DNA from: a virus
Reading direction: 5' to 3' (one strand)
Length of the DNA stretch: 64,000 nt
Virus record (IMG/VR): IMGVR_UViG_3300045988_144993
Shown piece by piece: positions 11,501 through 63,618 of this stretch. The notes below the pieces were generated by a model. The model was not told the origin of the DNA. It did not search any database and was given only the letters and a program-made list of their open reading frames with translations. Within the stretch, counting starts at the first letter, position 1, and each line of letters starts with the position of its first letter. The position numbers were made by a program, and so were the translations under genes.

Positions 11501-11657
11501 GAACCTTTTTATGAAAGATGAAAAAGTCGAAGATGATGACCTATATAGTAAGTTTGGAATTAACGAAATGATGCTAAAGGCGTTAATGACAAAGGGAAAG
11601 GACGAGAAAGGCAATATTAAAATCTTATGGGGTCATCAAAAAATCACAAACGATTAG
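8595..11657 (+). CDS. N6-adenine DNA methyltransferase fused to an SNF2/DEAD-like helicase (DarB-like)
   Basis: N-terminal methyltransferase motif I (IMDLTCGHGAF) and motif IV (VGNPPF). Helicase motif I (GSGKT), motif II (DESD), motif III (TGT) and a C-terminal Q..R block. Confidence 0.75.
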   Translation: MKYIVENLIIPQDKRAEINNKILYLIDNGIAEENGITATDIASSYTGNGGLSGEKFSNYENYYDYSEAKKEFEQGQFFTPYAITDFVIQCLKPDKFDIIMDLTCGHGAFANSVPQESNFFGCEIDMKSYKVAKYLYPKANIRCSDIRVYNPEIRADVIVGNPPFNLKWQIGDTTYVSQLYYTIKASENIKPGGLMALVVPSSFLADDFSDRGMIEEVSKEWNLLCQFDIPSDTFKNLGVTNFSTKIMFFQKKSEHILDVKFSTKKIAIDCLNIESSNFIYENYIKPVITLRNKLKNQLFFENLHDGKTQEQKQFEYKVKKMMFDIKRNPALQDKYAKCSEYLYKYQTQKMPEGMKYEEWEKRKITPNKVLAYLRKVIKSEHKVEIDKIELVKTDYGLKLKPYSRKMKILLNKQYGDFGKFVSINDIVSGQCSYQFENKKYEKLIDKKIKDFQSNEVSFKDMKQDSNIMKFLDNFSIHDYNKNETYKLTEKQKEDINKLLQKRYVFLQWEQGSGKTFAGIAQMDYRFQHNNIRNAFVISTAIAINNNWQDCLEAYHYDYIRINSYSDIQKIKKGQIVLITLDILNTLQKHIKKFVKMQSQKVMLVMDESDSISNQNSKRTKAVLSCFRKIKYKVCMTGTSTRNNICEIYPQLELLYNNSVNMLCECETVYVVDKNKDSETKGKIISDFNKQYNNPFPAYKKGYSLFSKCFLPDKITVFGVVKKTQDIYNSEALKKLLDKTIITRKFEEVTGKKIYEIKNVTCKFTPEEEALYSIAIEEFYKMQYLFKTTGNSRKDAMLRILNQLTLLLKICACPHTFKEYSSTELSSKYKKVFEMIEKWNNERIVIGVRHVDNVYSYATAIKELYPNRPLFVITGNNTTLKKRISICNELKKTRNGILICTQQSLSCSMNIDFVNKCIIPELHWNNASMSQFYFRFIRFTSTEWKEIYFVTYENSIEGNLLKMILCKEKLNLFMKDEKVEDDDLYSKFGINEMMLKALMTKGKDEKGNIKILWGHQKITND

Positions 11658-32963: not shown

Positions 32964-33038
32964 GCGAATATAGTGTAAAGGTTAGCACGCAAGTTTTCCA
33001 AACTTGAAGTGAGAGTTCAATTCTCTCTATTCGCTCCA
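32964..33038 (+). tRNA. tRNA-Gly(TCC)
   Basis: Acceptor stem GCGAATA/TATTCGC. Anticodon stem CAAGT/ACTTG with loop TTTCCAA. T-arm GAGAG-TTCAATT-CTCTC. CCA is encoded. Confidence 0.75.
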
Positions 33039-33043
33039 TATAT

Positions 33044-33119
33044 TGGGGTGTCGCCAAGCGGTAAGGCACAGGACTTTGACTCCTGCATTTCGTTGGTTCG
33101 AGTCCAACCACCCCAGCCA
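33044..33119 (+). tRNA. tRNA-Gln(TTG)
   Basis: Acceptor stem TGGGGTG/CACCCCA. Anticodon loop CTTTGAC. T-loop GGTTCGAGTCC. CCA is encoded. Confidence 0.75.
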
Positions 33120-33122
33120 TAT

Positions 33123-33213
33123 GGCGAGGTAATCCTAATGGTAAGGAAGCAGTTTGCTAAACTGTTAGTAGCCGGAAAACGGTGTGTGAGTTCGAGTCTC
33201 ACCCTCGCCGCCA
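33123..33213 (+). tRNA. tRNA-Ser(GCT)
   Basis: Acceptor stem GGCGAGG/CCTCGCC. Anticodon loop TTGCTAA. Long variable arm. CCA is encoded. Confidence 0.7.
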
Positions 33214-33327
33214 GTAATCTAATCGCAATTATTAGATACCTAAAATAAAGCGAATAAATAAGGGGTTGAGTGGTACGATACAAACTCTATGCCTTGCAGA
33301 GTTTATACCACAAGCAAGGTAATATAT

Positions 33328-33403
33328 AGGAGGGTAGTTTAATGGAGAACTCCGGTCTCCAAAACCGATGTAGATGAGGGTTCAAATCCTTCCTCTCCTG
33401 CCA
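33328..33403 (+). tRNA. tRNA-Trp(CCA)
   Basis: Acceptor stem AGGAGGG/CTCTCCT with one G-U pair. Anticodon loop CTCCAAA. T-loop GGTTCAAATCC. Confidence 0.6.
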
Positions 33404-33791
33404 GGTAAGTGAGAGATAAATATGCGATTAAAAGGTACAGCCTTTGTATTGGACGAGAAAGGTTTTCTTATTCATAGTTACGAGTCTCAATGCCGAAGTA
33501 CAAGGTGCATATACTCGCAGGTCGAGGGTTGGAGCAACGACTCGAAATAAAGTCTCCAAAATGTTTCCCGATGTTCAGTACACAATCGGCATAGAGGCAA
33601 AGGGTTAAAGGTGTTCGTATAATGACCAGAGATGGAAATTGCCAGAAGTCTGAAAAACCTAATTCTCGTAAGTCTATGAAGAAAGGAATAGCCTTTATTA
33701 GTGGGTGCGATAATGACGATTATCTAAAGGACACTAATTAGCGGTAGAATTTAAGTGTTGCAACACGAAAGACGTAGAGCCGCCAAAACAC

Positions 33792-33866
33792 GCATATGTA
33801 GCCAAATGGTTAAGGCAGCGGACTGCAACTCCGTCATTGCTGGTTCAATTCCAGCCATATGCTCCA
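33792..33866 (+). tRNA. tRNA-Cys(GCA)
   Basis: Acceptor stem GCATATG/CATATGC. Anticodon loop CTGCAAC. T-loop GGTTCAATTCC. Confidence 0.75.
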
Positions 33867-33872
33867 ATATAT

Positions 33873-33948
33873 GTGGTTGTTAGTGTAACGGTAAGCACGG
33901 CAGTTTGTGACACTGCAAGAAAAGGTTCAATTCCTTTACTTCCACCCA
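33873..33948 (+). tRNA. tRNA-His(GTG) with encoded G-1 and C73
   Basis: Anticodon stem GCAGT/ACTGC with loop TTGTGAC. T-arm AAAGG-TTCAATT-CCTTT. The acceptor stem (TGGTTGT/ACTTCCA) has two adjacent U-U mismatches at pairs 4:69 and 5:68. Confidence 0.6.
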
Positions 33949-33956
33949 ATATATAT

Positions 33957-34032
33957 GTGCCAGTAGCTCAATCGGTAGAGCAATCGACTTTTAATCGGTA
34001 GGTCGGAGGTTCGATTCCTCTCTGGCACACCA
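33957..34032 (+). tRNA. tRNA-Lys(TTT)
   Basis: Acceptor stem GTGCCAG/CTGGCAC. Anticodon loop CTTTTAA. T-loop GGTTCGATTCC. Confidence 0.75.
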
Positions 34033-34034
34033 TT

Positions 34035-34169
34035 GATGGCTGAAAATACTCATCCTTCTAAATCTTTTGCCTGTTAAGCAAGAGGTTGTCGGTTCGAGTC
34101 CGGCACTACCCCGTGGGTAGTTAGCTCAATCGGATAGAGCGCTTACAAGAATAGAGTATAAAATTTCCA
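34035..34169 (+). repeat. repeat unit U0 (long class) carrying a permuted tRNA-Asn-like domain
   Basis: Conserved blocks GATGGCTG and TCATCCTTCTA (34050-34060), and AAATTTCCA (34161-34169). Confidence 0.6.
34066..34146 (+). ncRNA. circularly permuted tRNA-like domain (Asn-GTT-like)
   Basis: Gene order: anticodon stem-loop TTTGC-CTGTTAA-GCAAG, then variable region, then T-arm GTCGG-TTCGAGT-CCGGC, then acceptor 3' strand ACTACCC plus C, then GT, then acceptor 5' strand GGGTAGT, then D-arm GCTC..GAGC, then anticodon-stem 5' strand. The two acceptor strands are perfectly complementary. Confidence 0.5.
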
Positions 34170-34275
34170 TCAAATTTCCCTTAACGGCTATATTGAAACT
34201 TCCTTCTATTAAAGAAATTGGGTTCTAAATAGTTTCAATGATTACCGACAAATTAAAACAAAGGAGATTATTACA

Positions 34276-36540
34276 ATGAAGAATTTCAAATTAACAGAAC
34301 TTGATAAGATTTTGTTACGCCGTAAGCATTCAGTGATGTTTGAACCTGCTAATATGACTTATGAGCAGAGCAAGACAGAAAAAGCACTCGTTGTTTCCGG
34401 CTTGAAAAATGTTCAGGCTCTTGGATTTACATTTTCAAAGGAACTTATTGAAAAAGCATTTCATTTTACAAGAGATGAGTTTACTGCTTTCTATGGTTTT
34501 CTTATTCCTGCACTTAAAGAACTTGTTGGTGCGGATGTTACATATAATCCAATGTACCCGAACTTTCCACAGCAGGTTGCAGAAGCAAGTGACATTGAGT
34601 TATTCATCAATGCAATCGTTCATTACTGGTCATTTGGCACATTGATTCCCGAATACGAAAAAAATGAGCGTTTACCGCTTATTGATGACAATAAAATGGC
34701 TGTTTTATCAGTAGGAAGTCACGATGATTTGATGACTATTTTCACAAATCTTGTTGAGAGCAAGACATCAATCTCGGAGCAGGACAAAGAGGACATTGAA
34801 ACTATCATTCTTGCTTGTCCTGATTATACTACATATCTTCCTGATACAATCCCTCTTAAAGAGAATGTTGCGTTCGTTGGAAAACTCATTATTGAAAAAG
34901 CACCAATCAAAAGCGCCGATTCAATAGGCAAATACTTCAAGACCGCAACGGATGTTTTACGACTTGTAACAGCACTTTCCGATGGCGACATTAGCCTTGC
35001 TTCAAAAACCAAGTACAGAAATCTTCGTAGGGTTGAACGCCGTATGATTATGGACTTGCTTACTGGTTGTGGTAACATAACAGAGGATTTATTCCGTTAT
35101 CAGTATGAATGGATTAGAGTTGCAGAAATTCTTCATCCGTTTGAATATAAAAAAGCAAAGTATAGCAATGTCAACGCTGCATTCAATACTTTAAGAAACG
35201 AGAAAAAACCTCTTATGTTTGCAGGAAAGGTTCAGGCAGCAATTACCGCAAAAGATATGCGTGAAGCTGCCACCTTGTTAAAAGCAAGACCCGGAGAGTT
35301 CGCAAGGCAACTTGACAAACTGATTCGTGATGCAGATAATCCGAATTATATTGTCAACTGTTTTAAGGAAGTTGCAACAGAAATCTCAACTCCTGTACTC
35401 CTTCAGGTAAGACAGCATTTCATAGGAAGAATGGAGAATGATAATCAGCCTGTAAGAGTATTCTTTCCTAAAGGAAACCTTGCAAAAGCTATGGTTATCA
35501 GAAATGAACTTCCTAAAATCAATAGTAATGTATGTAAAAATGTTGCAAGGATTTGCCGTGAGGCTTTAATTGAACAGTACAAGGAAAAAGATTTTCTCGG
35601 AAAGGTTTATATTGATGAGGATTTCAAAAACTACCTTGTTCCGTTTAGTCAGAGAAGTGCAAGTAAGGCTGTTAAGACCATTGTTCGTGGTAGCAAATTG
35701 CCCATTAAGGAAGATGCTGCGGCTGTTCGTGGTTTTATCTGGTGGACTAATACCGATAAGACGAGAAATAGTTGGGATGCCGGCAATTATTGCAAAGGCA
35801 GGGTTGATATTGACCTTTCTGCAACCATCTATGATGAAAATTGGCAGTATGTTGACCGTGTATCATACACACAACTTCGCTCTGCAAAGTACAGAGCATA
35901 TCATTCGGGTGATATTACCAATGGCGGAAATGTTAATGGCGATGGTGTAGCAGAGTTCATTGATGTAGAGATTGATGCGGTGGCTAAAAATGCCGGTAGA
36001 TACATTGCATTTCAGGTTTATAGTTTTACACGACAGCATTTTTCTACGCTTCCTAATTGCCGTTTCGGATGGATGGAAAGAGAAGATGTAAATAGCGGTG
36101 AGATATTCGAGCCGCAAACAGTTGAAATGAAGATTGACTTAACTGCTGACAGCACTGTTGCTATACCCGTTATATTCGATTGCGTTGAGCGTAAATTCAT
36201 TTGGTGTGATATGAACCTTCAAAATGCAAGTTCGAGGTTTTATGGAAATAATCTTGAAAGTAATTTACACGGTGTAACCGCAACTTGCTATGGCTTAACA
36301 CATCTTAATAAGGCAAATATTTATGACCTCATAATGATGAATGCTATTGCAAGAGGTAGTATTGTCACAGATAGAAATGAAGCAGACATCATTTTCAGCA
36401 ATGATACAACAGTACCTTATGAAATTGTAAATGAGCTTGACGAGGTTACGGGTACTACAAAACCTGTTGTAAAGGAAAAGCCGGAAGTTCCGATTATCAC
36501 GGCTTTCGATACTGATTACTTTATGGGTCAGTTATTATAA
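34276..36540 (+). CDS. large protein with a C-terminal TerD-like domain
   Basis: From about residue 470 the pattern DIDLSATIYDENWQ...YHSGDITNGG..GDGVAEFIDVEID...IAFQVYSF matches the TerD/TerZ fold. The N-terminal ~460 aa are unassigned. Confidence 0.55.
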   Translation: MKNFKLTELDKILLRRKHSVMFEPANMTYEQSKTEKALVVSGLKNVQALGFTFSKELIEKAFHFTRDEFTAFYGFLIPALKELVGADVTYNPMYPNFPQQVAEASDIELFINAIVHYWSFGTLIPEYEKNERLPLIDDNKMAVLSVGSHDDLMTIFTNLVESKTSISEQDKEDIETIILACPDYTTYLPDTIPLKENVAFVGKLIIEKAPIKSADSIGKYFKTATDVLRLVTALSDGDISLASKTKYRNLRRVERRMIMDLLTGCGNITEDLFRYQYEWIRVAEILHPFEYKKAKYSNVNAAFNTLRNEKKPLMFAGKVQAAITAKDMREAATLLKARPGEFARQLDKLIRDADNPNYIVNCFKEVATEISTPVLLQVRQHFIGRMENDNQPVRVFFPKGNLAKAMVIRNELPKINSNVCKNVARICREALIEQYKEKDFLGKVYIDEDFKNYLVPFSQRSASKAVKTIVRGSKLPIKEDAAAVRGFIWWTNTDKTRNSWDAGNYCKGRVDIDLSATIYDENWQYVDRVSYTQLRSAKYRAYHSGDITNGGNVNGDGVAEFIDVEIDAVAKNAGRYIAFQVYSFTRQHFSTLPNCRFGWMEREDVNSGEIFEPQTVEMKIDLTADSTVAIPVIFDCVERKFIWCDMNLQNASSRFYGNNLESNLHGVTATCYGLTHLNKANIYDLIMMNAIARGSIVTDRNEADIIFSNDTTVPYEIVNELDEVTGTTKPVVKEKPEVPIITAFDTDYFMGQLL

Positions 36541-36548
36541 AAGTATTT

Positions 36549-36650
36549 TGTGGCTATGGGCTTTCTTCCTTCTACAAGAAAATAATTTCGGTGGTTAAGC
36601 CACCTACATAATGATGATAAGATAGAAAGTTCGATTTCCACTATTCATAA
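36549..36650 (+). repeat. repeat unit U1 (degenerate)
   Basis: TGTGGCT, then TCTTCCTTCTA, then ATTTCCA. Internal hairpin GGTGG-TTAAG-CCACC. Confidence 0.45.
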
Positions 36651-36652
36651 TT

Positions 36653-36726
36653 TGTGGCTGTAATGCTCATCCTTCTACATAATATCAAGAACTGCAAATT
36701 CTTCTAAAAAGAGCATTAAATTTCCA
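36653..36726 (+). repeat. repeat unit U2 (short class, 74 nt)
   Basis: TGTGGCTG at 36653, TCATCCTTCTA at 36667, AAATTTCCA at 36718. Anticodon-arm-like hairpin AAGAA-CTGCAAA-TTCTT at 36687-36703. Confidence 0.55.
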
Positions 36727-36745
36727 CACCTCTTTCTAAATATTA

Positions 36746-36822
36746 TGTGGCTATTGTTTTTCATCCTTCTACGCCAATAGGCACTTGATTTGGGATTAAG
36801 ATTTCAGAGAAACAAATTTCCA
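36746..36822 (+). repeat. repeat unit U3 (short class, 77 nt)
   Basis: TGTGGCT at 36746, TCATCCTTCTA at 36761, AAATTTCCA at 36814. Hairpin CTTGA-TTTGGGA-TTAAG at 36784-36800. Confidence 0.55.
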
Positions 36823-36834
36823 TAATACAAAATA

Positions 36835-36983
36835 TGTGGCTGACCAACATCATCCTTCTATATATCAGGGAACTATATGTCGTGGGTTCGATTCCCACCA
36901 TTCCATCGAAGATGGAATGTAGCACAGTTGGTAGTGCAATAGTATTATTAGATGTTAAAATTACCGCATCGAATAAATTTCAA
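36835..36983 (+). repeat. repeat unit U4 (long class) carrying a permuted tRNA-like domain
   Basis: TGTGGCTG at 36835, TCATCCTTCTA at 36850, AAATTTCAA at 36975. Confidence 0.6.
36872..36943 (+). ncRNA. circularly permuted tRNA-like domain
   Basis: ACTAT, variable region, T-arm GTGGG-TTCGATT-CCCAC, acceptor 3' strand CATTCCA, loop TCGAAGA, acceptor 5' strand TGGAATG, D-arm TA-GCAC-AGTTGGTA-GTGC, then ATAGT. Both the acceptor stem (7 bp) and the anticodon stem (5 bp) pair perfectly. The would-be anticodon loop is not canonical. Confidence 0.5.
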
Positions 36984-37012
36984 ATAATTAGAAATAATAT
37001 TGAGAAAAACAC

Positions 37013-37041
37013 TTGACAAATAGTAAAATGTGTGCTATAAT
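37013..37041 (+). promoter_or_regulatory. sigma-A-type promoter with upstream element, inside the repeat region
   Basis: Upstream element TTAGAAATAATATTGAGAAA at 36988. TTGACA at 37013 and extended -10 TATAAT at 37036. Confidence 0.55.
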
Positions 37042-37064
37042 ATCTAATGTAAGTTAAATAAATA

Positions 37065-37142
37065 TTCGGCTGTTGAGGTTCATCCTTCTACCTATTAGGA
37101 ATAGACTTTTAATCTATATATTATAAGAGCCTCAAATTTCTG
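37065..37142 (+). repeat. repeat unit U5 (short class)
   Basis: TTCGGCTG, TCATCCTTCTA at 37080, AAATTTCTG at 37134. Hairpin ATAGA-CTTTTAA-TCTAT at 37101-37117. Confidence 0.5.
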
Positions 37143-37151
37143 AATATAAGC

Positions 37152-37289
37152 TGGCTGAAAGGTTTCATCCTTCTTCAAATACATAATATCAAGCTGCTAA
37201 TCGTGGGTTCGATTCCCACCTATCTACATTGTTGGTAGTCGCCAAGAGGTAAGGCAGCAGCCCTAAAATCAAAGAGACCGAAATTTCCA
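37152..37289 (+). repeat. repeat unit U6 (long class) carrying a permuted tRNA-like domain
   Basis: TGGCTG at 37152, TCATCCTTCTT at 37165, AAATTTCCA at 37281. Confidence 0.55.
37193..37261 (+). ncRNA. circularly permuted tRNA-like domain (Gln/Glu-type D-arm)
   Basis: GCTGC, variable region, T-arm GTGGG-TTCGATT-CCCAC, CTATCTA, then TTGGTAG, D-arm TCGCCAAGAGGTAAGGCA, then GCAGC. The anticodon stem pairs perfectly. The acceptor stem pairs only 5 of 7, with one wobble. Confidence 0.4.
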
Positions 37290-37481
37290 GCATTAAGAAA
37301 CATTATTGAGCAAAACAAAATACGATAACTACAAAACCTAATCAGAATTTTTCACCTCTTTCTTTCCTTTCTATGTTTTTGTGTATTTCATAAGATAAAT
37401 TAAGAGTATTTTTTTGTCTGATTAAAACCTGTTTAACAGGGGGCAAAGTTAGATAGATAAAGGTCTTTGCCATATACATAT

Positions 37482-37559
37482 GCGCCGATAGTTCAGTTGG
37501 AACAGAATGCTTGACTACGAATCAAGAGGTCGCAGGTTCGAGTCCTGCTCGGCGTGCCA
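37482..37559 (+). tRNA. tRNA-Arg(ACG)
   Basis: Acceptor stem GCGCCGA/TCGGCGT. Anticodon stem CTTGA/TCAAG with loop CTACGAA. T-arm GCAGG-TTCGAGT-CCTGC. CCA is encoded. Confidence 0.7.
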
Positions 37560-37577
37560 AGAGTGAAAATTTAATAT

Positions 37578-37663
37578 GCTGGTATGATGGAATTGGCAGA
37601 CATAGCGGACTTAAAATCCGTTGGCTGCAAGCCGTGTCGGTTCGAGTCCGACTACCAGTACCA
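37578..37663 (+). tRNA. tRNA-Leu(TAA)
   Basis: Acceptor stem GCTGGTA/TACCAGT. Anticodon loop CTTAAAA. Long variable arm. T-arm GTCGG-TTCGAGT-CCGAC. Confidence 0.7.
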
Positions 37664-37713
37664 CTTTTCATTAAGTTTCACCTCTATTGACAGCCGGGAA
37701 AGACCGGCAATAT

Positions 37714-37803
37714 GGCGAGTTGGCAGAGTCCGGCTTATTGCACCTGTCTCGAAAACAGGCGGCGGTGATGAGCCGCCCGTGGGTTCAAATCCTACACTCG
37801 CCG
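37714..37803 (+). tRNA. tRNA-Ser(CGA)
   Basis: Acceptor stem GGCGAGT/ACTCGCC. Anticodon stem CCTGT/ACAGG with loop CTCGAAA. Long variable arm. T-arm GTGGG-TTCAAAT-CCTAC. CCA is not encoded. Confidence 0.65.
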
Positions 37804-38422
37804 TCAACATCCTGTTAGCGCAACAGGTTGGTTGAGAACCGACTCTCACGACCAATACCAAAAGCATAAAAGCCTCTTAACAATGCTCACTATTATGAAA
37901 AAGTTGGTTATTAAAATATTGCTGTCGCCGCGAATATAGGTGGGGTAAACATACTTTCATATGCAAATCGCAAAATCCTCATTAGCGAACTCCGTGGAAG
38001 CTGCTCCTATGGCTGATGGCTTCTGACAGCAACTATATAAATGAGAAGAAAGAAACTCTCTGTTTAGGGTGAAATGATATATCTCTAATCGGTGCTGACA
38101 CCTATCAGACATTTATATGGCGTTACACCCTCTACCGATACGATAAATCGGGGTAACACAATGGTGAGGGAATTATAAATACGAGAGTGCAGGAATAATG
38201 AGTAGTCATTCAAAGGAATTACAGTAAATGATTGTGCATTTATAACGAACTGCAAGAGTGAATGTATGAACAATGAATGACGGTGACTAAATATCAGTTA
38301 GCAATGGCAATATGAGGCGAGGATGTGGTGTGGCTATGCAAACCAACTCACAGTGTTTCGGCATAGAGTAGTTAAACTGTTGCTAACTGGTATTGAAATC
38401 ACTTTAGAAAGGAGAGAACAAA

Positions 38423-38692
38423 ATGTTTCATAATGTAATAATCGGAAGTCCGATTGTAGAACCTAAAACATTGATTGCTCTTGATGATGTAGATTGGGAA
38501 ACCAATGAAAAAGAAAAGACATTATTTACCGATACAAGATTTCTTCCGGCAATTATGAAAGAAGCCGGAATAGTGAAATCAATCGGAGAAGTTAGAAAGA
38601 ATAAGCCCGAACTTGTTTTTACTCTTAATGAACTTGATTGTTTATGGATTAAATGGGGCAAGAAGTTTCTTTATATTGTAGTCGGTAATTGA
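38423..38692 (+). CDS. hypothetical protein
   Basis: ORF with ribosome-binding site AAAGGAGAG. Confidence 0.55.
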   Translation: MFHNVIIGSPIVEPKTLIALDDVDWETNEKEKTLFTDTRFLPAIMKEAGIVKSIGEVRKNKPELVFTLNELDCLWIKWGKKFLYIVVGN

Positions 38693-38920
38693 TTGGAAAT
38701 TTATTATGAATAAAGATAAATTTGCGGAATTGATAAATGAAATATTTATAAGCGGCGTTGCTTATGGTATGGCTTATCAAACAAAAAGTGATGCAGAGAA
38801 ATATCATATTATTGATGAAAAAACAGATAAAATTTTATTTAGTGATTTTTAGTTAATGATTTGGCTATTTCTTTTTATCCAAGTGTGATTATTCCATCTG
38901 CTTTGAAAAATAAATGAATT

Positions 38921-39003
38921 GCTGGTGTGGTGGAATGGCAGACACGGCAGACTCAAAATCTGTTGCTATAAGCGTGCGAGTTCAAATCTCGCCACCAGCA
39001 CCA
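38921..39003 (+). tRNA. tRNA-Leu(CAA)
   Basis: Acceptor stem GCTGGTG/CACCAGC. Anticodon stem GCAGA/TCTGT with loop CTCAAAA. Long variable arm. T-arm GCGAG-TTCAAAT-CTCGC. CCA is encoded. Confidence 0.65.
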
Positions 39004-39005
39004 AA

Positions 39006-39099
39006 GGTTCATTGGTCAAGTGGTTAAGACACTGGCGGAGGTATGTAGTGTAAATCAGGCACACTGCCGGAGACATAGGTTCAAATCCTATATGAGCCA
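39006..39099 (+). ncRNA. tRNA-like element (94 nt) with a 29-nt anticodon-loop region
   Basis: Acceptor stem GGTTCAT/ATGAGCC. D-arm GTC..GAC. T-arm ATAGG-TTCAAAT-CCTAT. The only consistent anticodon stem is CTGGC/GCCGG, which encloses 29 nt. No anticodon can be assigned and no CCA is present. Confidence 0.35.
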
Positions 39100-39155
39100 T
39101 AGATAATCCTATTTCGTTGTTAAGTGTGGCTGACACTTTCAAAAACAGCCAATAT

Positions 39156-39231
39156 TGCAGGATAGAGAAGTGGTTATCTCGTCAGCCTCATAAGCTGAAA
39201 ATCGTGGGTTCAAATCCCACTCCTGCAACCA
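39156..39231 (+). tRNA. tRNA-Met(CAT), elongator or Ile2-like
   Basis: Acceptor stem TGCAGGA/TCCTGCA. Anticodon stem TCAGC/GCTGA with loop CTCATAA. T-arm GTGGG-TTCAAAT-CCCAC. CCA is encoded. A TGTGGCTG motif lies in the 5' leader at about 39128. Confidence 0.7.
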
Positions 39232-55148: not shown

Positions 55149-55304
55149 ATGAATAATCAACTTATCGAAGAAAATCTGTTAGGTGTTTAACTAATAACAG
55201 GAACAAATTATAAACGAATAAGCGATGTTTGTAATAATAAATATGAGCGTAAAGCGCAGGTGGATATACTTGGCGCTTCGTTGAAAATGAAAGGAGTTGA
55301 TTAT

Positions 55305-56361
55305 ATGTCTTTCTATTACAGCAATGAAATTGTTTTTAGAGGACATCCCTGACAAAGTTTGCGACCAAATAAGTGATGCACTTCTTGATGCTTTTTTGAA
55401 GCAGGATAAACATAGCAGATGCGGCATTGAAACTGTCGGCGGCAAAGGAAAAATATTCGTAACAGGTGAAGTAACTTCAAGAGCATTAGTCAATGTAACA
55501 AACATTGTTAAAGAAGCTCTTCGTGATGTTGGATATGACCCAAATAAATATGAAGTTATTGATAACATCGGTAAACAGTCACCTGATATTGCGCAGGGCG
55601 TTGATGCTGGAGGTGCTGGAGACCAAGGAATGATGTTCGGGTATGCGTGCAGAGATACAGTGGATTACATTCCTACGGCAATGGCTATCCTTCAAGATTT
55701 ATCGGCATTCTATGATAGACTTGTCAAAATTGATGACAGATTTCTCCCTGATGGCAAGGCACAGATAACAGGGTTCTATGATGAAAATAACAAATTGGAG
55801 TATATAAAGGATTTTATTATCTCATATCAGAACAAAGAAACAAATCGAGCAGAGACAGATAAAATTCTTACTGACTACTGTGAGACACTTTGTTCAAATT
55901 ATGGAATTGCAATCAGAGAGTTTCACATCAATCTGACGGGTAAATTCTTAATCGGTGGTTTTGATGGAGATGCAGGTCTAACCGGCAGAAAAATTGTAGT
56001 TGACAATTATCAATCTTTTGCAAATGTCGGAGGTGGTGCATTCTCTGGTAAAGACCCAACAAAAGTTGACCGTTCGGCAGCGTATAAGGCAAGACAGCTT
56101 GCAATCGAATGTCTTGATACATTACCCGATGTCAACTGGTGCGAAATTCAGATTTCTTATGCAATAGGTATGGATAAGCCTCTTGGAATTTATGCAAAGA
56201 CAAACAAGGAAGTAATTGATATACCGGACTGTTTCTATGATGAATGCACACCAAAAAGGATTATCGAAGATTTGCATTTGATAGATGGAACATTTAAGTT
56301 TAATGATACTGCAAAGTTTGGTCACTTTGGTCATTCTGAATTTCCGTGGGAGTCAAGATAA
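55305..56361 (+). CDS. metK: S-adenosylmethionine synthetase with a 1-nt frameshift in the GHPDK motif
   Basis: The ATG at 55305 (ribosome-binding site AAAGGAG) gives MSFYYSNEIVFRGHP, then a stop. The +1 frame continues DKVCDQISDALLDA...GAGDQG...GGGAFSGKDPTKVDRSAAY. An extra T or C in GGACATCCC(T)GAC breaks the motif. Confidence 0.65.
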
Positions 56362-56762
56362 TGTCAATATTTGAACAATCGAAAATTCGAGGTTATAAAT
56401 TCCTCGATAGGTGCATTACCTTATCGAACTACATAATTACTTTTTATATTGAGGATATGGTTTCTGCTAAAACAATGCTTGACGAAATCATTGAATACTA
56501 TAAGAAGGTGACTTATGACTGTGAGATAAAATCTATTGCTGAAGGTGAGCAAATTAAGATTGAGTTTTTCAATGGTAGCATTATCAATCTAATAACCAAA
56601 GAGAATATGATTTCTGAAATTTGTTCACAAGTTATTTTTATGGATTCTCGAATAAGAGAAACATATATTCAAGAAGTTATTAAGCCGAAAATCGACCAAT
56701 ATGTTCTCGGAGATGGAAATGCAATGCTCAATCCAAAACCAATATACTTACAATTTGTATAA
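56361..56762 (+). CDS. hypothetical protein
   Basis: Its start overlaps the metK stop. Confidence 0.5.
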   Translation: MSIFEQSKIRGYKFLDRCITLSNYIITFYIEDMVSAKTMLDEIIEYYKKVTYDCEIKSIAEGEQIKIEFFNGSIINLITKENMISEICSQVIFMDSRIRETYIQEVIKPKIDQYVLGDGNAMLNPKPIYLQFV

Positions 56763-56778
56763 ATGAAAGGAAATTATT

Positions 56779-57366
56779 ATGAAAAAGAAAAGAATTGTTT
56801 CAATCTTAATGGTTGTTCTTGTTATGTTTTCTGTTTGCTGTTTATTTACTGGATGTGTAGATAACACAAGTGAATCAGAAAATACTAAAACAGCTATGAA
56901 AAGTTCTGGAGAAATTGTTGATAATCAACCTGCTCCAATAGATTTATCTTATTCTCTCGAAAGATACAATGTCATAAAAAGAGCCTATTGGGTAAATGGT
57001 CAAAGAGAAAAAGCAATGTCTTTACCCTGTGAAGTTGAAAAACCTCTTGGCTATATTGTTTTGTTCTCTGAAAATGGCTCTGTTGTTGGAAGATTTGTTG
57101 TTGATGGTAAAGTATCAAGTTTGAACAGTTACCTATTCCCTGCCGAATATCCACAGCATATCCATAATGAAGATGGAAATGGAAATTGTTATTATGACTT
57201 GGTTGAAATCGCAGGTATTGATGGATGTTATGGCGAAAATGTGCCGGGAATATTCTTCTTTACTACCGATGGAAAATATATTGAATGGACTGGAGATTTC
57301 TTATTTAGTGATATTCCATTTGAAGTTGATGACCCTGTTTTATCTATTGATGGAGGAAGTAAATAA
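56779..57366 (+). CDS. lipoprotein
   Basis: Signal peptide with lipobox LFTGC. Confidence 0.55.
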   Translation: MKKKRIVSILMVVLVMFSVCCLFTGCVDNTSESENTKTAMKSSGEIVDNQPAPIDLSYSLERYNVIKRAYWVNGQREKAMSLPCEVEKPLGYIVLFSENGSVVGRFVVDGKVSSLNSYLFPAEYPQHIHNEDGNGNCYYDLVEIAGIDGCYGENVPGIFFFTTDGKYIEWTGDFLFSDIPFEVDDPVLSIDGGSK

Positions 57367-57758
57367 TGCGTAAAACGGTAATTACAGTATTGATAGTTTT
57401 GGTTTGTATTCTTATTATCGGATTGCCTATATATTTTACTGCAACTCCAAGTGGTGTTTCAGCTTGGAATAATTGGTTTGGTACAGTTCAAAAAGCAGAT
57501 GATGATACCAACTATGAAACATTAAAAAGGGTTGAAGATACTTGTCGTTCTATGATTTCTTCTTATAATTCAGATAAACTCATTTATGAGCAATATAAAG
57601 ATTCTGATGATGAAGAAAAACAAAATTGGGCTGAACAAGCAAAGATGAGGGCTAATAAGACAGCAAATACATATAACAATTATATTCTTAAAAATGATTA
57701 TATATGGCAGAATAACATTCCTGCTGATATATATAGAGAATTGTCATACATTGATTAA
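57366..57758 (+). CDS. membrane protein
   Basis: N-terminal transmembrane segment. Confidence 0.5.
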   Translation: MRKTVITVLIVLVCILIIGLPIYFTATPSGVSAWNNWFGTVQKADDDTNYETLKRVEDTCRSMISSYNSDKLIYEQYKDSDDEEKQNWAEQAKMRANKTANTYNNYILKNDYIWQNNIPADIYRELSYID

Positions 57759-57776
57759 ACGCTGGGAGGATTAAAA

Positions 57777-58343
57777 ATGGCTAAAGAAAAAGGTAAATTT
57801 AGTTTGAAATTAACAGCAATTATTCTTGCTATTATTGTTGCTGTTTCGATGATGTTTGTATTCGGTTTCAATGGCGTTAAAAACAAAGCGATTTCTTACG
57901 AGGAACAAATCAGTACAGCGCAGTCTGACATTAAGGTTCAGGAAAAGCGCAGAGCAGACCTTATACCTAACCTTGTTGATTGTGTTAAACAGTATGATAA
58001 GCACGAATATGAAACCCTAATGGCTGTCGTTGAAGCAAGAGGCACATCGTCTGATAATTCTGTGAATGAGATTCAGACTATGATTAACGCAGTTGCAGAG
58101 GCTTATCCAGAATTAAAGAGCAATGAAAACTACAAAGAATTGATGTCGGAACTTACAACCACAGAAAATTTGATTGCAAATTATCGAAGTAATTTTAATA
58201 AGTTTGTTAAATCTTATAATCAGTATGTAAGGCAATTTCCGAACAGTAATATTCTTGATATGCTCGGCTATGAGGTAATTGAATATTCATACTTAAATTA
58301 TGATGTATCGGAAGATGCACCAACAAATCTTTTCGGAGATTAA
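57777..58343 (+). CDS. LemA-family protein
   Basis: N-terminal transmembrane segment plus LemA-like conserved blocks. Confidence 0.6.
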   Translation: MAKEKGKFSLKLTAIILAIIVAVSMMFVFGFNGVKNKAISYEEQISTAQSDIKVQEKRRADLIPNLVDCVKQYDKHEYETLMAVVEARGTSSDNSVNEIQTMINAVAEAYPELKSNENYKELMSELTTTENLIANYRSNFNKFVKSYNQYVRQFPNSNILDMLGYEVIEYSYLNYDVSEDAPTNLFGD

Positions 58344-58346
58344 CCT

Positions 58347-59117
58347 ATGGATAAGAGGTTAGTAACCAAGCGCGAAGTCCTTTTTAGTATTATCATTATT
58401 GCTGTAATGCTTGTGTTTGGTTTTATGATTTCATCCGGAATAAGTAATTCTTTAATGAATGATTATCAGGAATACAACACGGCATTGCAGATAGATAATA
58501 ACAAAGATGTATTTCAACACGGTATGAGAACAAACATAGGTAATGCTTTCGTATATGGTGAACTTAAAGCTGTTGATACAGTTTCTTATGATGAAATTGA
58601 AGGAGACTTCTCCTATATAAAGAAAGTCAAAGAGAAATATACAAGACACACAAGCACGGTAACAAAAACGAGAACAAACTCAAAAGGCAAAACCGAAACA
58701 TATACGGAAACAGAAGAATATTATACTTGGGATTATGTTAGCCAAGAATCAAAAAGCTCTACAAAGATTGATTTTATTGGTGTTGAGTTTCCTTATGATA
58801 CAATTCATTTACCAAGTGAAAGAGAAATAAAAACGATATATGTAGATGGTGATTGGTGGCATTCATCAGGAGATATAAGATATGTGTATTATGCTGCTCC
58901 TGCCGAATGTAAAGGAACACTATACGCTGTACTTAAAGATAATACAATTTCTAATGTTCACTTTTATTATGATAAGAATATTGAAGATACAATCGAAAAC
59001 CTTGAGTCCGAATGGCAGATAATGGCTTTTTGGATTTTTTGGATATTACTTATAGGTGGATTGGTAGTAGGTTTTTATGTCGTTGATAATAAGTGGCTTG
59101 AAGATAAAAAGAAATAA
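58347..59117 (+). CDS. membrane protein (partner of LemA)
   Basis: N- and C-terminal transmembrane segments. Confidence 0.5.
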   Translation: MDKRLVTKREVLFSIIIIAVMLVFGFMISSGISNSLMNDYQEYNTALQIDNNKDVFQHGMRTNIGNAFVYGELKAVDTVSYDEIEGDFSYIKKVKEKYTRHTSTVTKTRTNSKGKTETYTETEEYYTWDYVSQESKSSTKIDFIGVEFPYDTIHLPSEREIKTIYVDGDWWHSSGDIRYVYYAAPAECKGTLYAVLKDNTISNVHFYYDKNIEDTIENLESEWQIMAFWIFWILLIGGLVVGFYVVDNKWLEDKKK

Positions 59118-59134
59118 TTAAAGGAGATTAAGAA

Positions 59135-59731
59135 ATGAATATGTTCAATGGTATGTTTGGCAAAGTAGCCAACGGAATGTGCAGACTTTCAATGAACGGT
59201 GAGGTTGCCGTAAAGACAAGTGATGGTTATAAGACTTATAATATCAAGAAAAATAGACTTACAAATTGCAATAACTTCGTTTTCAATCTTGGTGAGGAAT
59301 TTTTCTTTGTAATTCCTACTAATAAAGTTGAAGCTGGCGACATTATTCTTGTATCAGGCAAGCCAAAGTGTGTTATTGCAGTAAATAATGATACAATTAA
59401 GGTCATTGATTATGAGGATTCAACTGTTAAGGACATTCTTCCAGAACGCCACGTTTTTATGGGTAATACATATTTTTACGGCAAGATTGTTTCAATGTTC
59501 GGAAACGACTTGATGAAGGGTAAAAAAGGTATGGGCAAAATGATGTCCTATATGATGATGTCTGAAATGATGAAGGGCAGCAATGGCGGAACAATGGGTG
59601 ATAATGGTATGGCTTCAATGCTTCCATTTATGTTGCTTGGTGGCGGAAATAGGTTTACCGATATATTTGATGGTATGTTCGATTCCGATAACAATGATGA
59701 AGAAGTAACAGAAGATAAGGAGGCAGAATAA
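59135..59731 (+). CDS. hypothetical Met/Gly-rich protein
   Basis: ORF with ribosome-binding site AAAGGAGAT. Confidence 0.5.
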   Translation: MNMFNGMFGKVANGMCRLSMNGEVAVKTSDGYKTYNIKKNRLTNCNNFVFNLGEEFFFVIPTNKVEAGDIILVSGKPKCVIAVNNDTIKVIDYEDSTVKDILPERHVFMGNTYFYGKIVSMFGNDLMKGKKGMGKMMSYMMMSEMMKGSNGGTMGDNGMASMLPFMLLGGGNRFTDIFDGMFDSDNNDEEVTEDKEAE

Positions 59732-60588
59732 TGGGTTGCGGAACTTGGACTACAAGTGATTATACAATTTACTCAAAATCTGTTGGTAGAACTGTTCTTG
59801 ATGACGGTAATTTAGATAAGAGTTATTCTGCACAGGATTTATTTAAGTCAAGATGTATTCAACCTGAATTAGACCCTTATAATGTAGTTCGTCAGTGTTG
59901 TGATTCAGACGAACATCCTAATACAATCCCAGTTATTCTTGCTCTTGATGTTACGGGTAGTATGGGTAGTGCTGCCGCAGAAGTCGCAAAGAAACTCAAT
60001 GAGGTTATGACAAGACTCTATGAGGAAGTAACTGACGTGGAATTCCTTGTTATGGGTATTGGCGATTTGGCTTATGATAATGCACCTATTCAGGCTTCAC
60101 AGTTTGAATCAGATGTTCGTATTGCCGAGCAGCTTGATAAAATTTATTTTGAAAGAGGTGGTGGCGGTAATTCATTTGAGTCATATACTGCTGCGTGGTA
60201 TTTTGGATTAAAACACACCGACCTCGATTGCTGGAAGCGTGGTAAGAAAGGCATTATCATTACAATGGGAGATGAATCATTAAATCCTTATCTTCCTGCA
60301 AATAGATTAAGTGCCGTAACCGGAGATTCATTGCAGACTGATGTTGAAACAGAAACACTTTATAAGGCGGCAAGTGAAAAATTTGATATTTACCACTTGG
60401 CTATTGATGATACTGCTACAAGTTATTCTTGGCATAAAGATGGTATTAACAATACTTATAGCAAGTATCTTGATAACAAACATTTCCTTACTGTTGGATT
60501 GAATAATATTGCAAGCACTATTGTTAATATTATAACCAATGCAAAAGATGAGGAAGTTGCAAATACAAATACTGAAATTTCTTGGTGA
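59731..60588 (+). CDS. vWA-domain protein
   Basis: MIDAS-type metal-binding motif LDVTGSMG. Confidence 0.6.
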   Translation: MGCGTWTTSDYTIYSKSVGRTVLDDGNLDKSYSAQDLFKSRCIQPELDPYNVVRQCCDSDEHPNTIPVILALDVTGSMGSAAAEVAKKLNEVMTRLYEEVTDVEFLVMGIGDLAYDNAPIQASQFESDVRIAEQLDKIYFERGGGGNSFESYTAAWYFGLKHTDLDCWKRGKKGIIITMGDESLNPYLPANRLSAVTGDSLQTDVETETLYKAASEKFDIYHLAIDDTATSYSWHKDGINNTYSKYLDNKHFLTVGLNNIASTIVNIITNAKDEEVANTNTEISW

Positions 60589-60594
60589 TAAATA

Positions 60595-61794
60595 ATGAGT
60601 AAAGTTAAGGTCAAAGTAGTAATAGGTAGTAATTATGGAGATGAAGGAAAAGGATTGGCAACACATTTTTTCTCTCAATCCGCGAAAAATAAGTGCTTAA
60701 ATGTTTTATTTAATGGAGGATGTCAACGAGGTCATACTGTCGAACTTAAAGATGGCACAAGGCATATTTTCCATCATTTTGGAAGTGGCACATTTGATAA
60801 TGCTCATACATACTTTGACCAAAACTTTATGGTTAATCCTGCAATCTTCATTCAAGAATATAATGAGCTTAAAAAATATGGCATCAAACCTATATGTATG
60901 ATTTCTCCTAAATGTAGAGTAAGCACTATGTATGATATGTTTATCAATCAAATTGTTGAAATACATAGAGAGAATAAAAGACACGGTTCTTGTGGTTATG
61001 GTATTTGGGAAACACAAAAAAGGTATGATGATGGTGTTTTTGCATTAGATTATAACCAACTATCTCATATGAACGATAAAGATGTTGTAGATTATCTACA
61101 TAATATAGCAAATGTTTATTTACCTAAAAAATTATTTGAATACGGAATAACAGAAATTCCACAAGAGTATCAAGAGTTGATAAAGTCTAAAGGGTTAATT
61201 GAACATTTCGTTAGTGATTTAAGAGAAATGCAATATATAACTTTTATGTGTGATTTCGATAGAATCCGAAATAAGTATAATACCATTATATTTGAGGGTG
61301 CGCAAGGTCTTGAACTTGATGAGAATAATCTAAAAGCATTGCCATACATCACAGCAAGTAATACTACTTCTTATACACCTATTCAAAGAGTTAATGATTT
61401 TGATTGCGATGTTGAAATTTGTTATATTACAAGGTCTTATTTTACCAGACACGGAGCAGGAACATTACCAACAGAATGTGATAAGTCGGATATAAATAAA
61501 GATATAACTGACCTTACAAACTGTTATAACGATTACCAGCAAACAATAAGGTATGGAATGTTTGATTATGATGAGTTTATCAATAGAGTGAAAGCTGATA
61601 TACAAAGAGCAAGAGAAAAAATCAGCGGAACAAAAACTTCTGTTATGATTACTCATTTGAATTATACGGATAATGAAATTGCAGGTAATTGTAAAATTCA
61701 AGATTTGTTAAAACATTTCGATAATATATATTTATCTAATACAAAATTTTCAGAAGATATAAAGAGAACCAACAAAGGAAGTACAATATATTGA
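60595..61794 (+). CDS. adenylosuccinate synthetase family protein (PurA/PurZ-like)
   Basis: GDEGKG, GGCQRGHT, FEGAQG, ASNTT and TRHGAGTLPTE motifs. Confidence 0.65.
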   Translation: MSKVKVKVVIGSNYGDEGKGLATHFFSQSAKNKCLNVLFNGGCQRGHTVELKDGTRHIFHHFGSGTFDNAHTYFDQNFMVNPAIFIQEYNELKKYGIKPICMISPKCRVSTMYDMFINQIVEIHRENKRHGSCGYGIWETQKRYDDGVFALDYNQLSHMNDKDVVDYLHNIANVYLPKKLFEYGITEIPQEYQELIKSKGLIEHFVSDLREMQYITFMCDFDRIRNKYNTIIFEGAQGLELDENNLKALPYITASNTTSYTPIQRVNDFDCDVEICYITRSYFTRHGAGTLPTECDKSDINKDITDLTNCYNDYQQTIRYGMFDYDEFINRVKADIQRAREKISGTKTSVMITHLNYTDNEIAGNCKIQDLLKHFDNIYLSNTKFSEDIKRTNKGSTIY

Positions 61795-61804
61795 TTAAAA
61801 TTAA

Positions 61805-62273
61805 CACCCCCTGCCAAATCTTATATGTGGAGAGTGTTTAACAGAATTAAGTAAAATACCAAACGAGAGCATTGATTTAATTGTAACAGACCCACCTTAT
61901 AAAATTACTTCTCGTGGGAACGCCGGAAATTCAGGTGGTATGTTACAAAAGAAAATCAATATGCAAGGTCAAGTATTTAAGCATAATAACATTGATTGTT
62001 CAGAATATGCATCGGAGTTTTATAGAATATTAAAAGATGGCAGTCATTAAATTAAAAGGTATTGACGGAAAGAATTTACACGATACTGAAAAGCCTGTTG
62101 AGTTGATGAAGATATTGATTAACAATTCTTCTCAACAAAACGGTATAGTATTAGACCTATTTATGGGTATAGGTAGTACAGGCATTGCTTGTAAAGAGCT
62201 TGACCGACAATTCATAGGTATAGAAATAGACCAACAATACTACAATATTGCACAGGAACGAATTAAAGGATAA
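61805..62273 (+). pseudogene. beta-class DNA methyltransferase, 5'-truncated and frameshifted
   Basis: The first frame encodes ..LICGECLTELSKIPNESIDLIVTDPPY..RILKDGSH then a stop at 62050, with no start codon. The second frame (62037-62273) holds TEKPVE...VLDLFMGIGSTG...FIGIE. Confidence 0.5.
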
Positions 62274-62274
62274 A

Positions 62275-62562
62275 ATGACTGAAACAAAGTTACCTTATAC
62301 ACATCTTCTTTATGTTAGAAAATATTCTATCATTACCAATGATTATGAACTTTTTATCGTTGGCGTTAATACTAAAGATATTTTCCATACTATGGGGGAA
62401 TATTTGTATCGAAGCGAAACGCAAGTCAAGAGAATAAACAAAGTAGAATGCACACAAGAAAAACTTGACTTTTGGGCAAAAGAAGGATATGAGATTTATG
62501 AATTTAAGGACAAGTACATTGTTAAGAATGAAAGGAAAGAAGAAAATGCAGATTACCATTGA
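62275..62562 (+). CDS. hypothetical protein
   Basis: Start trimmed to the ATG after ribosome-binding site AAAGGA. Confidence 0.45.
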   Translation: MTETKLPYTHLLYVRKYSIITNDYELFIVGVNTKDIFHTMGEYLYRSETQVKRINKVECTQEKLDFWAKEGYEIYEFKDKYIVKNERKEENADYH

Positions 62563-63187
62563 TAGTGCAAATGTAAAAAAAATTGAAAATGGAAAGGTTA
62601 CTATTGACCTTAATCCAGAGCAACTTGCAGCATTAACTTGTTCCAATAAAGTTGAATTATCAACACTAAAACCAGGAGATGAATTTAAGCTCGGAGATGA
62701 AGCATTCATTGTGATGGAACATACTGATAGAGGAACAAGAGTTATTTCAAAAGAGTTTGCTTATGAAGGAGTAAAATTCGGCAATAATTCAAATTGGAAT
62801 ACATCTCTTATTCGCAAAATGTTCAATAATGAGTATTTTGAGAAGATTGCAGCTATCATCGGAAAAAACAATATTATTTCTATGGATAGAGACCTCACTT
62901 CTCTCGATGGTTTGGATGATTACGGAACTTGTACCGATAAGGTAAGTCTTTTAACCGCTATGGAATATGCAAAGTATCATAAGATTCTTGGTTTGAAGTC
63001 TAACTATCCTAATTGGTGGTGGCTTATTACTCCTATATCCACCCCGAGTAATGGCTATGCTCTTGGCGTTTGCTATGTCGATTCCGACGGCATTATTCGC
63101 TGGAATGGCTGTGGCTATGCCTCCTGTGGTGTGCGCCCGTTTTTGAATCTTGAATCTTCTATCTCGGTTCTTTTGAATAAGGATTAA
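62546..63187 (+). CDS. hypothetical protein, paralog of 29207-29815
   Basis: Start trimmed to the ATG at about 62546. The C-terminus has the motif W.GCGYASCGVRPF. Confidence 0.55.
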   Translation: MQITIDSANVKKIENGKVTIDLNPEQLAALTCSNKVELSTLKPGDEFKLGDEAFIVMEHTDRGTRVISKEFAYEGVKFGNNSNWNTSLIRKMFNNEYFEKIAAIIGKNNIISMDRDLTSLDGLDDYGTCTDKVSLLTAMEYAKYHKILGLKSNYPNWWWLITPISTPSNGYALGVCYVDSDGIIRWNGCGYASCGVRPFLNLESSISVLLNKD

Positions 63188-63618
63188 CGACTATTTATCC
63201 ATTCACGGAATTGTGATAATACGATTGTTTCAAGACGAGAAGTTTGAAAAGCATTTCTTCTTGACAAGAGCATTTCAAAACGCTTAAATCGCTGATTTGC
63301 TAAATCAATAGGAAGCCCGGAGAGGCTACTCATCTCTTCCGCAGATTTAACACCTAATTCTTTGAAAATAATCATAGGCGCAAGAATTCTAATAGCAAGG
63401 TATCTTGGAAATTCAGGATTCGCCATTCCAAAGATTTTCAAGATACATTCGGCAACGGAAAGAGTATTATCATATAAAGATTTAGAATTGTCAATTAAGT
63501 GTTGTAAATCATAAAGAGTAGCAATAGCATTTATATCAACTGGCAGCCGTGAAATATTTGCATCAATGAGTAAATCCCACGCTAAATTTCGTATATGTTT
63601 ATATTCTTGTTCTGTCAT
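63184..63618 (-). CDS. hypothetical protein
   Basis: Minus-strand ORF downstream of the ImmA-like gene. Confidence 0.5.
   Translation of the reverse strand: MTEQEYKHIRNLAWDLLIDANISRLPVDINAIATLYDLQHLIDNSKSLYDNTLSVAECILKIFGMANPEFPRYLAIRILAPMIIFKELGVKSAEEMSSLSGLPIDLANQRFKRFEMLLSRRNAFQTSRLETIVLSQFREWINSR

Follow-up and report, generated by a model that had tools for sequence, protein, structure and literature searches.

The 64,000-nucleotide stretch of phage DNA analysed here (IMG/VR virus record IMGVR_UViG_3300045988_144993, hereafter "the window") carries at 59731-61794, on the plus strand, a gene for a 285-aa protein of the von Willebrand factor type A (vWA) fold (59731-60588), followed by one for a 399-aa homolog of the PurA ligase superfamily (PF00709; 60595-61794). 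Judged from its sequence, the PurA-like protein belongs to a distinct phage clade that is neither adenylosuccinate synthetase (PurA) nor PurZ, but a third clade of PF00709, and the vWA protein is its obligate partner across at least four unrelated phage lineages. We give about an even chance to this enzyme being an active ligase dependent on nucleoside triphosphates (NTP), which, together with the vWA protein, would couple a 6-oxopurine nucleotide similar to inosine monophosphate (IMP) to a non-aspartate amine. A first-pass annotation of the window had already placed a PurA-family gene beside a vWA gene at this position, and the two same-strand open reading frames (ORFs) are there as it described.

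A third clade of PF00709

Membership of the superfamily is clear: the protein scores 116.1 bits against the Pfam profile Adenylsucc_synt (PF00709, cutoff 27), and matches phrog_1211 (E-value 7e-55), a family that PHROG names as PurZ-type. Its motifs are GDEGKG (15-20), GHT (46-48), FEGAQG (233-238), SNTT (255-258) and TRHGAGTLPTE (284-294). The first four agree with the first-pass annotation, whereas the fifth had been read as TR.G.GP.PTE, from which the actual block differs at one position. The protein had also been described as full length, which is true of the fold, but the Pfam match is limited to positions 1-305 of a 416-position profile, and the protein has no C-terminal guanine-binding loop.

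Broader comparisons bring the protein closer to PurA than to PurZ, yet within the limits of neither. The scores for the NCBIfam PurA equivalogs TIGR00184 and NF002223 (103.1 vs. a cutoff of 402, and 89.8 vs. 395.55, respectively) did not reach threshold, and the PurZ model NF038379 gave 35.2 bits vs. a cutoff of 300, with a match limited to residues 6-95. An AlphaFold2 model of the protein (pLDDT 92.8) had E. coli PurA as its best Foldseek match (1cg3, E-value 5e-21, TM 0.70), ahead of PurZ0 (2.5e-15) and PurZ (5e-14 or weaker), and a phmmer search of PDB sequences matched PurA entries and no PurZ entry. Making the E-value cutoff stricter did not cleanly separate the clades.

We mapped the ligand residues of E. 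coli PurA, with roles taken from the established PurA literature and PMC8342488, onto 119 family members and onto the homologs from Vibrio, Rhizobium and Mycobacterium phages. The residues of phosphotransfer and of the purine site (D13, K16, G40, H41, Q224 and T239) are invariant, the first five being retained in 119/119 members and T239 in 118/119; in the window protein, D13, K16, H41, Q224 and T239 correspond to D16, K19, H47, Q237 and T253. The G127/S128 loop is nearly invariant across the family as well. Around the IMP 5'-phosphate, N38 is replaced by Gln (119/119) and T129 by Cys (118/119 members and most lineages, with Thr in Vibrio phage Va1), and R143, which the other subunit supplies in PurA, is not conserved. 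At the IMP ribose, V273 is replaced by His in all 119 members and in all three distant lineages (the TRHG motif; His286 in the window protein).

The aspartate-binding stretch (G302-R305) is without counterpart in any member, and the T300/T301 positions hold Ser/Thr and Ile/Leu or, in an alternative register, Asp and Tyr. This loop is a gapped part of the alignment, and its register differs between the two alignments made, R303 and R305 being lost in both. The remodelled loop has invariant residues of its own (D306, T308, N309, N312, Q315 and R319). At the site for the guanine of GTP, K331 and D333 (the KxD motif) are replaced by His and Asn (H354 and N356 in the window protein; THLNY instead of TKLDV), and the S414-P417 loop (SxGP) is absent. 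The resulting motif, H354-L-N356-Y357, resembles PurZ F295-C-N297-Y298, whose F295 and Y298 stack against the adenine base, and this likeness suggests that the phosphate donor may be ATP.

The alignment presents a protein that keeps the phosphotransfer machinery of E. coli PurA (EC 6.3.4.4; 1ade/1cg3), at ~20-27% identity and with a shorter C-terminal part, and has lost both the aspartate site and the guanine-specific site. A check of the residues that tell PurZ from PurA, as the first-pass annotation had suggested, gives a divided answer: the catalytic residues match housekeeping PurA, whereas the aspartate and GTP-base sites do not, and it is because the former alone match that we regard the protein as a third kind.

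These residues also bear on the possibility that the enzyme is a PurZ, converting dGMP, aspartate and ATP to N6-succino-2-amino-dAMP in a phage whose adenine is replaced by 2-aminoadenine (a Z-genome). With PurZ and PurZ0 (6FM1, 7ODX, 7VF6) it has in common a phage-encoded PF00709 gene, the PHROG label, a shortened C-terminus, the HLNY motif with its N-Y pair, and the lack of an Arg at the ribose 2'-OH, as R303, which contacts the IMP 2'-OH in PurA, is missing here and effectively so in PurZ (PMC8342488). However, the position of PurZ Ser14 is taken by Asp16 in the window protein and by Asp in 119/119 family members, whereas in PurZ a Ser (rarely a Gly) stands in place of the catalytic P-loop Asp, with Ser in 100% of 147 phage PurZ/PurZ0 sequences (PMC12884076; the P-loop of phiVC8 PurZ is GSTGKG), and an S14D mutation abolishes the substrate selectivity of PurZ. 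The basic aspartate-binding residues that PurZ keeps (K267, R269) are likewise absent, as is, by the phiVC8 queries described below, the synteny with datZ, mazZ and usually dpoZ, and the profile and structure comparisons above rank PurZ below PurA.

When every phiVC8 ORF (DatZ and DpoZ among them) was used as a tblastn query, neither the window nor the related 176-kb genome MT835469.1 yielded a Z-cluster gene, the only matches being a helicase and the PurA-like gene itself; this search is sensitive to phiVC8-like sequences only, and the window is part of a genome. The result agrees with the remark in the first-pass annotation that no DatZ or MazZ gene was visible, and its caution that a PurA homolog need not be a PurZ was justified. 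The Z-genome idea that it put forward is not supported, given the P-loop Asp, the PurZ profile score (35 of the 300 bits required) and the lack of any Z-cluster gene by phiVC8 queries, and we consider PurZ activity very improbable indeed.

Coupling to a vWA gene across distant phages

The vWA gene is followed by a same-strand PurA-like gene in 235/235 testable loci, i.e., those with enough sequence after the vWA gene to hold it. These include 80/80 loci of the gut clade from IMG/VR, 78/78 testable genome loci, and 77/77 testable divergent environmental loci, the latter having been fetched with highly diverged vWA representatives (some on contigs of up to 365 kb). In a phage database, the vWA protein matched 220 records (202 from Mycobacterium/Mycolicibacterium, 10 from Rhizobium, 6 from Vibrio and 2 others), and clade-type PurA-like proteins were found in essentially the same 220 (Mycobacterium 203, Rhizobium 10, Vibrio 6). 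All remaining PurA-like hits were of the ordinary PurA type, without a vWA gene and with an alignment ending at residue ~295.

Among cultured phages the pair is adjacent in three distant groups, namely Vibrio phage Va1, Rhizobium phage RHph_Y65 and the cluster C mycobacteriophages. Their proteins (mycobacteriophages Bxz1, Alice and MoMoMixon gp259, Va1 gp039, RHph_Y65 gp019) share the TRHG motif, the remodelled aspartate loop and the upstream vWA gene with the window, at 26-36% identity to the window protein. The module is also kept in MT835469.1, which has few other genes in common with the window. Such coupling in hundreds of unrelated large phages points to a shared job for the two proteins.

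This adjacency is one of several difficulties for the simplest alternative, in which the enzyme is an ordinary adenylosuccinate synthetase carried as an auxiliary metabolic gene (converting IMP, aspartate and GTP to adenylosuccinate, for more AMP) and the vWA protein is unrelated to it. The PurA fold and the conserved catalytic residues (D13 and K16 of the GDEGKG P-loop, the GHT His41, Q224 of FEGAQG, and T239) would fit such a role, and the Mycobacterium phage homologs are called "PurA-like" in GenBank. However, the scores lie 4-fold under both equivalog cutoffs, and conservation does not extend to R303, R305, T300/T301, R143, N38, K331/D333 or the S414-P417 loop. A strict association with a vWA gene (235 loci, at least four lineages) has no place in purine synthesis, and the true PurA hits in phage records are precisely those that align to ~295 only and lack it. 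We therefore find this alternative quite improbable.

The organization of the locus is consistent with joint expression. The vWA gene has a strong Shine-Dalgarno sequence and an ATG overlapping, as TAATG, with the stop codon of the 198-aa ORF before it, and the PurA-like gene starts 6 nt past the vWA stop. This short gap, together with the lack of a Shine-Dalgarno sequence of its own for the PurA-like gene and of any terminator-like site in 56000-63500, makes it likely that the two genes are co-transcribed and translationally coupled.

The setting of the locus is a large phage, and PHROG matches in the window include an integrase, an NAD-dependent ligase and a helicase. Near-identical IMG/VR contigs exist for the window, and contigs related to it have been binned with Lachnospiraceae, Ruminococcus and other Clostridia or are integrated in them; Mediterraneibacter hominis NSJ-55 has a related prophage, on a contig of 1.96 Mb. 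A 99% identical vWA protein (P0121) is reported on 16 contigs, and the longest of these (612 kb) could be bacterial with a prophage in it, or else come from a phage of very large size. At the DNA level the region had no match in a phage collection, nor did PADLOC models match the vWA, PurA-like or 198-aa protein.

The vWA protein and its N-terminal glycine

The partner protein has a Rossmann-like vWA fold with a motif resembling the metal ion-dependent adhesion site (MIDAS), composed of D73-V-T75-G-S77, GGGGN (143-147) and G180-D181-E182 in the window protein. Of these residues, D73, S77 and D181 do not vary between distant lineages, and the sequence allows no assignment of the middle Thr ligand. 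The family N-terminus reads M-G-x-G-x-[WYF]-x4-[WYF]-x2-Y, with Met-Gly at the start of 119/122 full-length representatives sharing at most 50% identity (two of the exceptions having an internal MG start). At 50% identity, the vWA family falls into 1707 clusters, and a PDB sequence search with the vWA protein returned no match.

Fusion proteins were considered as a functional clue, and none was found among 150 diverged vWA representatives, all those listed being single-domain proteins of at most 409 aa. Long vWA proteins of Mycobacterium phages, as well as an 800-aa environmental PurA-like protein, were rejected as fusions, their extra length being ascribed to intein insertions. In the vWA homolog of Mycobacterium phage Alice (gp247, L174:3001-4785), a ~255-aa intein (Cys1 ... 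SSN/Cys+1) sits between KGY and IFIGDE, directly ahead of the MIDAS Asp; this homolog may be the "hypothetical protein, C1" intein host of PMC5050341. The 595-aa protein of Mycobacterium phage Sauce (BFVD) probably contains the same intein type, judging from its length and a gapped alignment alone. In the 800-aa PurA-like protein (L258:6936-9338), a large intein-like insertion with a homing-endonuclease domain falls between the His and Thr of GHT. Inteins usually insert at functionally critical sites, and the insertions in GH/T of the PurA-like protein and before the MIDAS GDE of the vWA protein thus suggest that both sites are probably critical.

A possible ligase acting with the vWA protein

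It is unlikely that the module makes Z-DNA precursors or simply raises AMP synthesis. In the ligase reading that we favour, the enzyme would activate C6 of an IMP-like nucleotide, either ribo or deoxy, and hand this activated nucleotide to an amine other than aspartate, with an NTP donor that is probably ATP given the likeness of HLNY to the FCNY of PurZ. The vWA partner could itself be the acceptor, or it could serve as obligate scaffold or regulator, and its near-invariant N-terminal Gly would offer a free alpha-amine once the Met is removed. Candidate purposes include host takeover or counter-defence, by way of either a modified nucleotide or a nucleotide-tagged protein.

One could speculate further that the alpha-amine of the vWA Gly2 replaces aspartate as the acceptor, so that a covalent N6-(protein)-adenylate would be formed. 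We see this specific version as a long shot, although it would explain at once the lost carboxylate-binding Arg, the invariant Gly2 and the clustering of protein-modifying enzymes around the pair. The kinases and R2K ATP-grasp ligases found in sister lineages (see below) would then be further modifiers of the same hub protein.

Several points weigh against a ligase acting with the vWA protein. The substrate assignments rest on a sequence alignment to E. coli PurA that is gapped in the aspartate loop, and the conserved catalytic residues would fit a pure NTPase as well. Nor are vWA domains known to accept nucleotide adducts. Finally, the third genes of the locus vary by lineage, which weakens any single pathway model.

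A different kind of cooperation is suggested by MoxR-vWA, CobS-CobT and NorQ-NorD, in which, as here, a vWA protein with a MIDAS or MIDAS-like motif is genetically coupled to a P-loop NTPase: the pair could be a chaperone or remodelling system, where NTP hydrolysis drives assembly or metal insertion and nothing is ligated. The lost aspartate site would fit the loss of the second half-reaction, and the Met/Gly-rich protein encoded next to the pair may recall chaperone tails. However, the residues that act on the nucleotide substrate, and not in NTP hydrolysis, are still invariant (Q224, T239) or nearly so (the G127/S128 loop), and new invariant polar residues have appeared along the former aspartate loop (T308, N309, N312 and Q315). 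The NTPase here has a PurA fold and is not AAA+, clustering or searching of 240 fetched loci showed no AAA+ protein in the module, and we know of no PurA-fold chaperone. We consider this alternative unlikely, even though MoxR-vWA pairs are known from jumbo phages (PMC7824862). The probabilities that we attach to these readings do not total one, the rest going to functions outside those considered.

Implications for Z-genome inference and phage biology

Members of this family have been annotated as "PurA-like" since 2006 (PMC1475703), and a 2026 survey leaves the clade among "other PurA homologs" (PMC12884076). In the literature searched we found no characterised function for the PurA-like/vWA pair, and no account of the vWA coupling, the lost aspartate site or the N-terminal Gly motif. 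As phage PF00709 hits are now routinely taken as PurZ, and hence as signs of Z-genomes, the clade represents a systematic false positive for this inference, and its members include thousands of metagenomic proteins as well as those of all cluster C mycobacteriophages. Beyond annotation, the combination of kept catalysis, a lost aspartate site and an obligate vWA partner with an invariant N-terminal Gly indicates a widespread phage module, probably with new chemistry. If the acceptor were indeed a protein, the product would be a protein-nucleotide conjugate of a previously undescribed kind, with a possible role in host takeover or counter-defence. The module occurs in tractable systems, among them Vibrio phage Va1 and, with M. 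smegmatis as host, Bxz1 or Alice.

Neighbouring genes

Directly upstream of the vWA gene, the window encodes a 198-aa accessory protein (59135-59731, plus strand), with a small beta-rich N-terminal domain (MF.KV.G...VKT) followed by a Met/Gly-rich low-complexity tail (MMSYMMMSEMMKG...LLGGG). It occupies the same place in 80/80 IMG/VR and 68/80 genome loci of the gut clade, and Vibrio phage Va1 (L001:4246-4959) and Rhizobium phage Y65 (gp016) have proteins of the same architecture, albeit with weak sequence similarity, encoded ahead of their vWA genes. Two Bacillus phages also have its N-terminal domain, in gp39 of phage G and as part of the vB_BceM_WH1 "virion structural protein gp208"; the counterparts in Va1 and Rhizobium have a domain that recurs in phages of Roseobacter, Ralstonia and Acinetobacter in which the vWA/PurA-like pair is missing. 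We considered this protein as a third core member of the module and rejected it, because its domain occurs in phages lacking the pair and because it is missing from the environmental flavours of the locus.

Other lineages have other neighbours. In mycobacteriophages the gene ahead of the pair encodes a kinase whose N-terminus is DnaJ-like with an HPD motif (gp256), so that the third gene is a Ser/Thr kinase instead of the Met/Gly-rich protein of the window; homologs of this kinase occupy the upstream position in 42/80 environmental loci (L179-L258). In the same environmental set, an R2K.2 ATP-grasp gene (PF18299) is found downstream in 26/80 loci and a gene for a 123-aa protein upstream in 30/80 (examples of kinase and R2K.2 ATP-grasp flanks are L179:4555-5442 and L183:7705-8547). 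For R2K.2 enzymes, a role as peptide ligases acting on proteins has been predicted (PMC4431377). The adjacent kinase of some lineages is reminiscent of TerY-type vWA-kinase-PP2C systems; unlike these, the window has no kinase, and the PP2C family was not among the recurrent neighbours. Farther upstream in the window (57777-59117), genes for a LemA-family protein and then a phrog_3886 membrane protein were also rejected as module members, being present in only ~21-22/80 relatives and at a varying upstream distance.

The methyltransferase downstream of the pair

A beta-class N6/N4 DNA methyltransferase gene follows the PurA-like gene and is split in the window (61830-62273) by an internal 253-bp deletion and a frameshift, relative to two IMG/VR loci (L010 and L011) that are 98-99% identical to the window here and in which it is intact as one ORF in the same position. 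The N-terminal DPPY part (...IDLIVTDPPYK...RILKDGSH, then a stop) lies at ~61,830-62,047 in frame 2, and the ORF at 62037-62273 corresponds to the C-terminal motif-I part. The gene has no ATG start, its frame opening just past the stop of the PurA-like gene. The first-pass annotation described the 3' end of the PurA-like gene as abutting a truncated methyltransferase and took this as a sign of cassette insertion. In fact, the N-terminal part is present in another frame and the 253 bp were lost internally, and since the gene is intact in the same place in both relatives, a recent internal deletion accounts for the split, which is no sign of the arrival of a cassette.

Other features of the window

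Thirteen tRNA genes are arranged in three clusters at 32964-39231. A 1020-aa protein (8595-11657) matches the helicase family phrog_24008 end to end, and its N-terminus resembles DNA methyltransferase and DarB-like antirestriction families. Finally, the window encodes an S-adenosylmethionine synthetase (MetK; 55297-56361); all three Pfam domains are present, the called start codon is TTG, and the gene was found in only 2/80 related IMG/VR loci.

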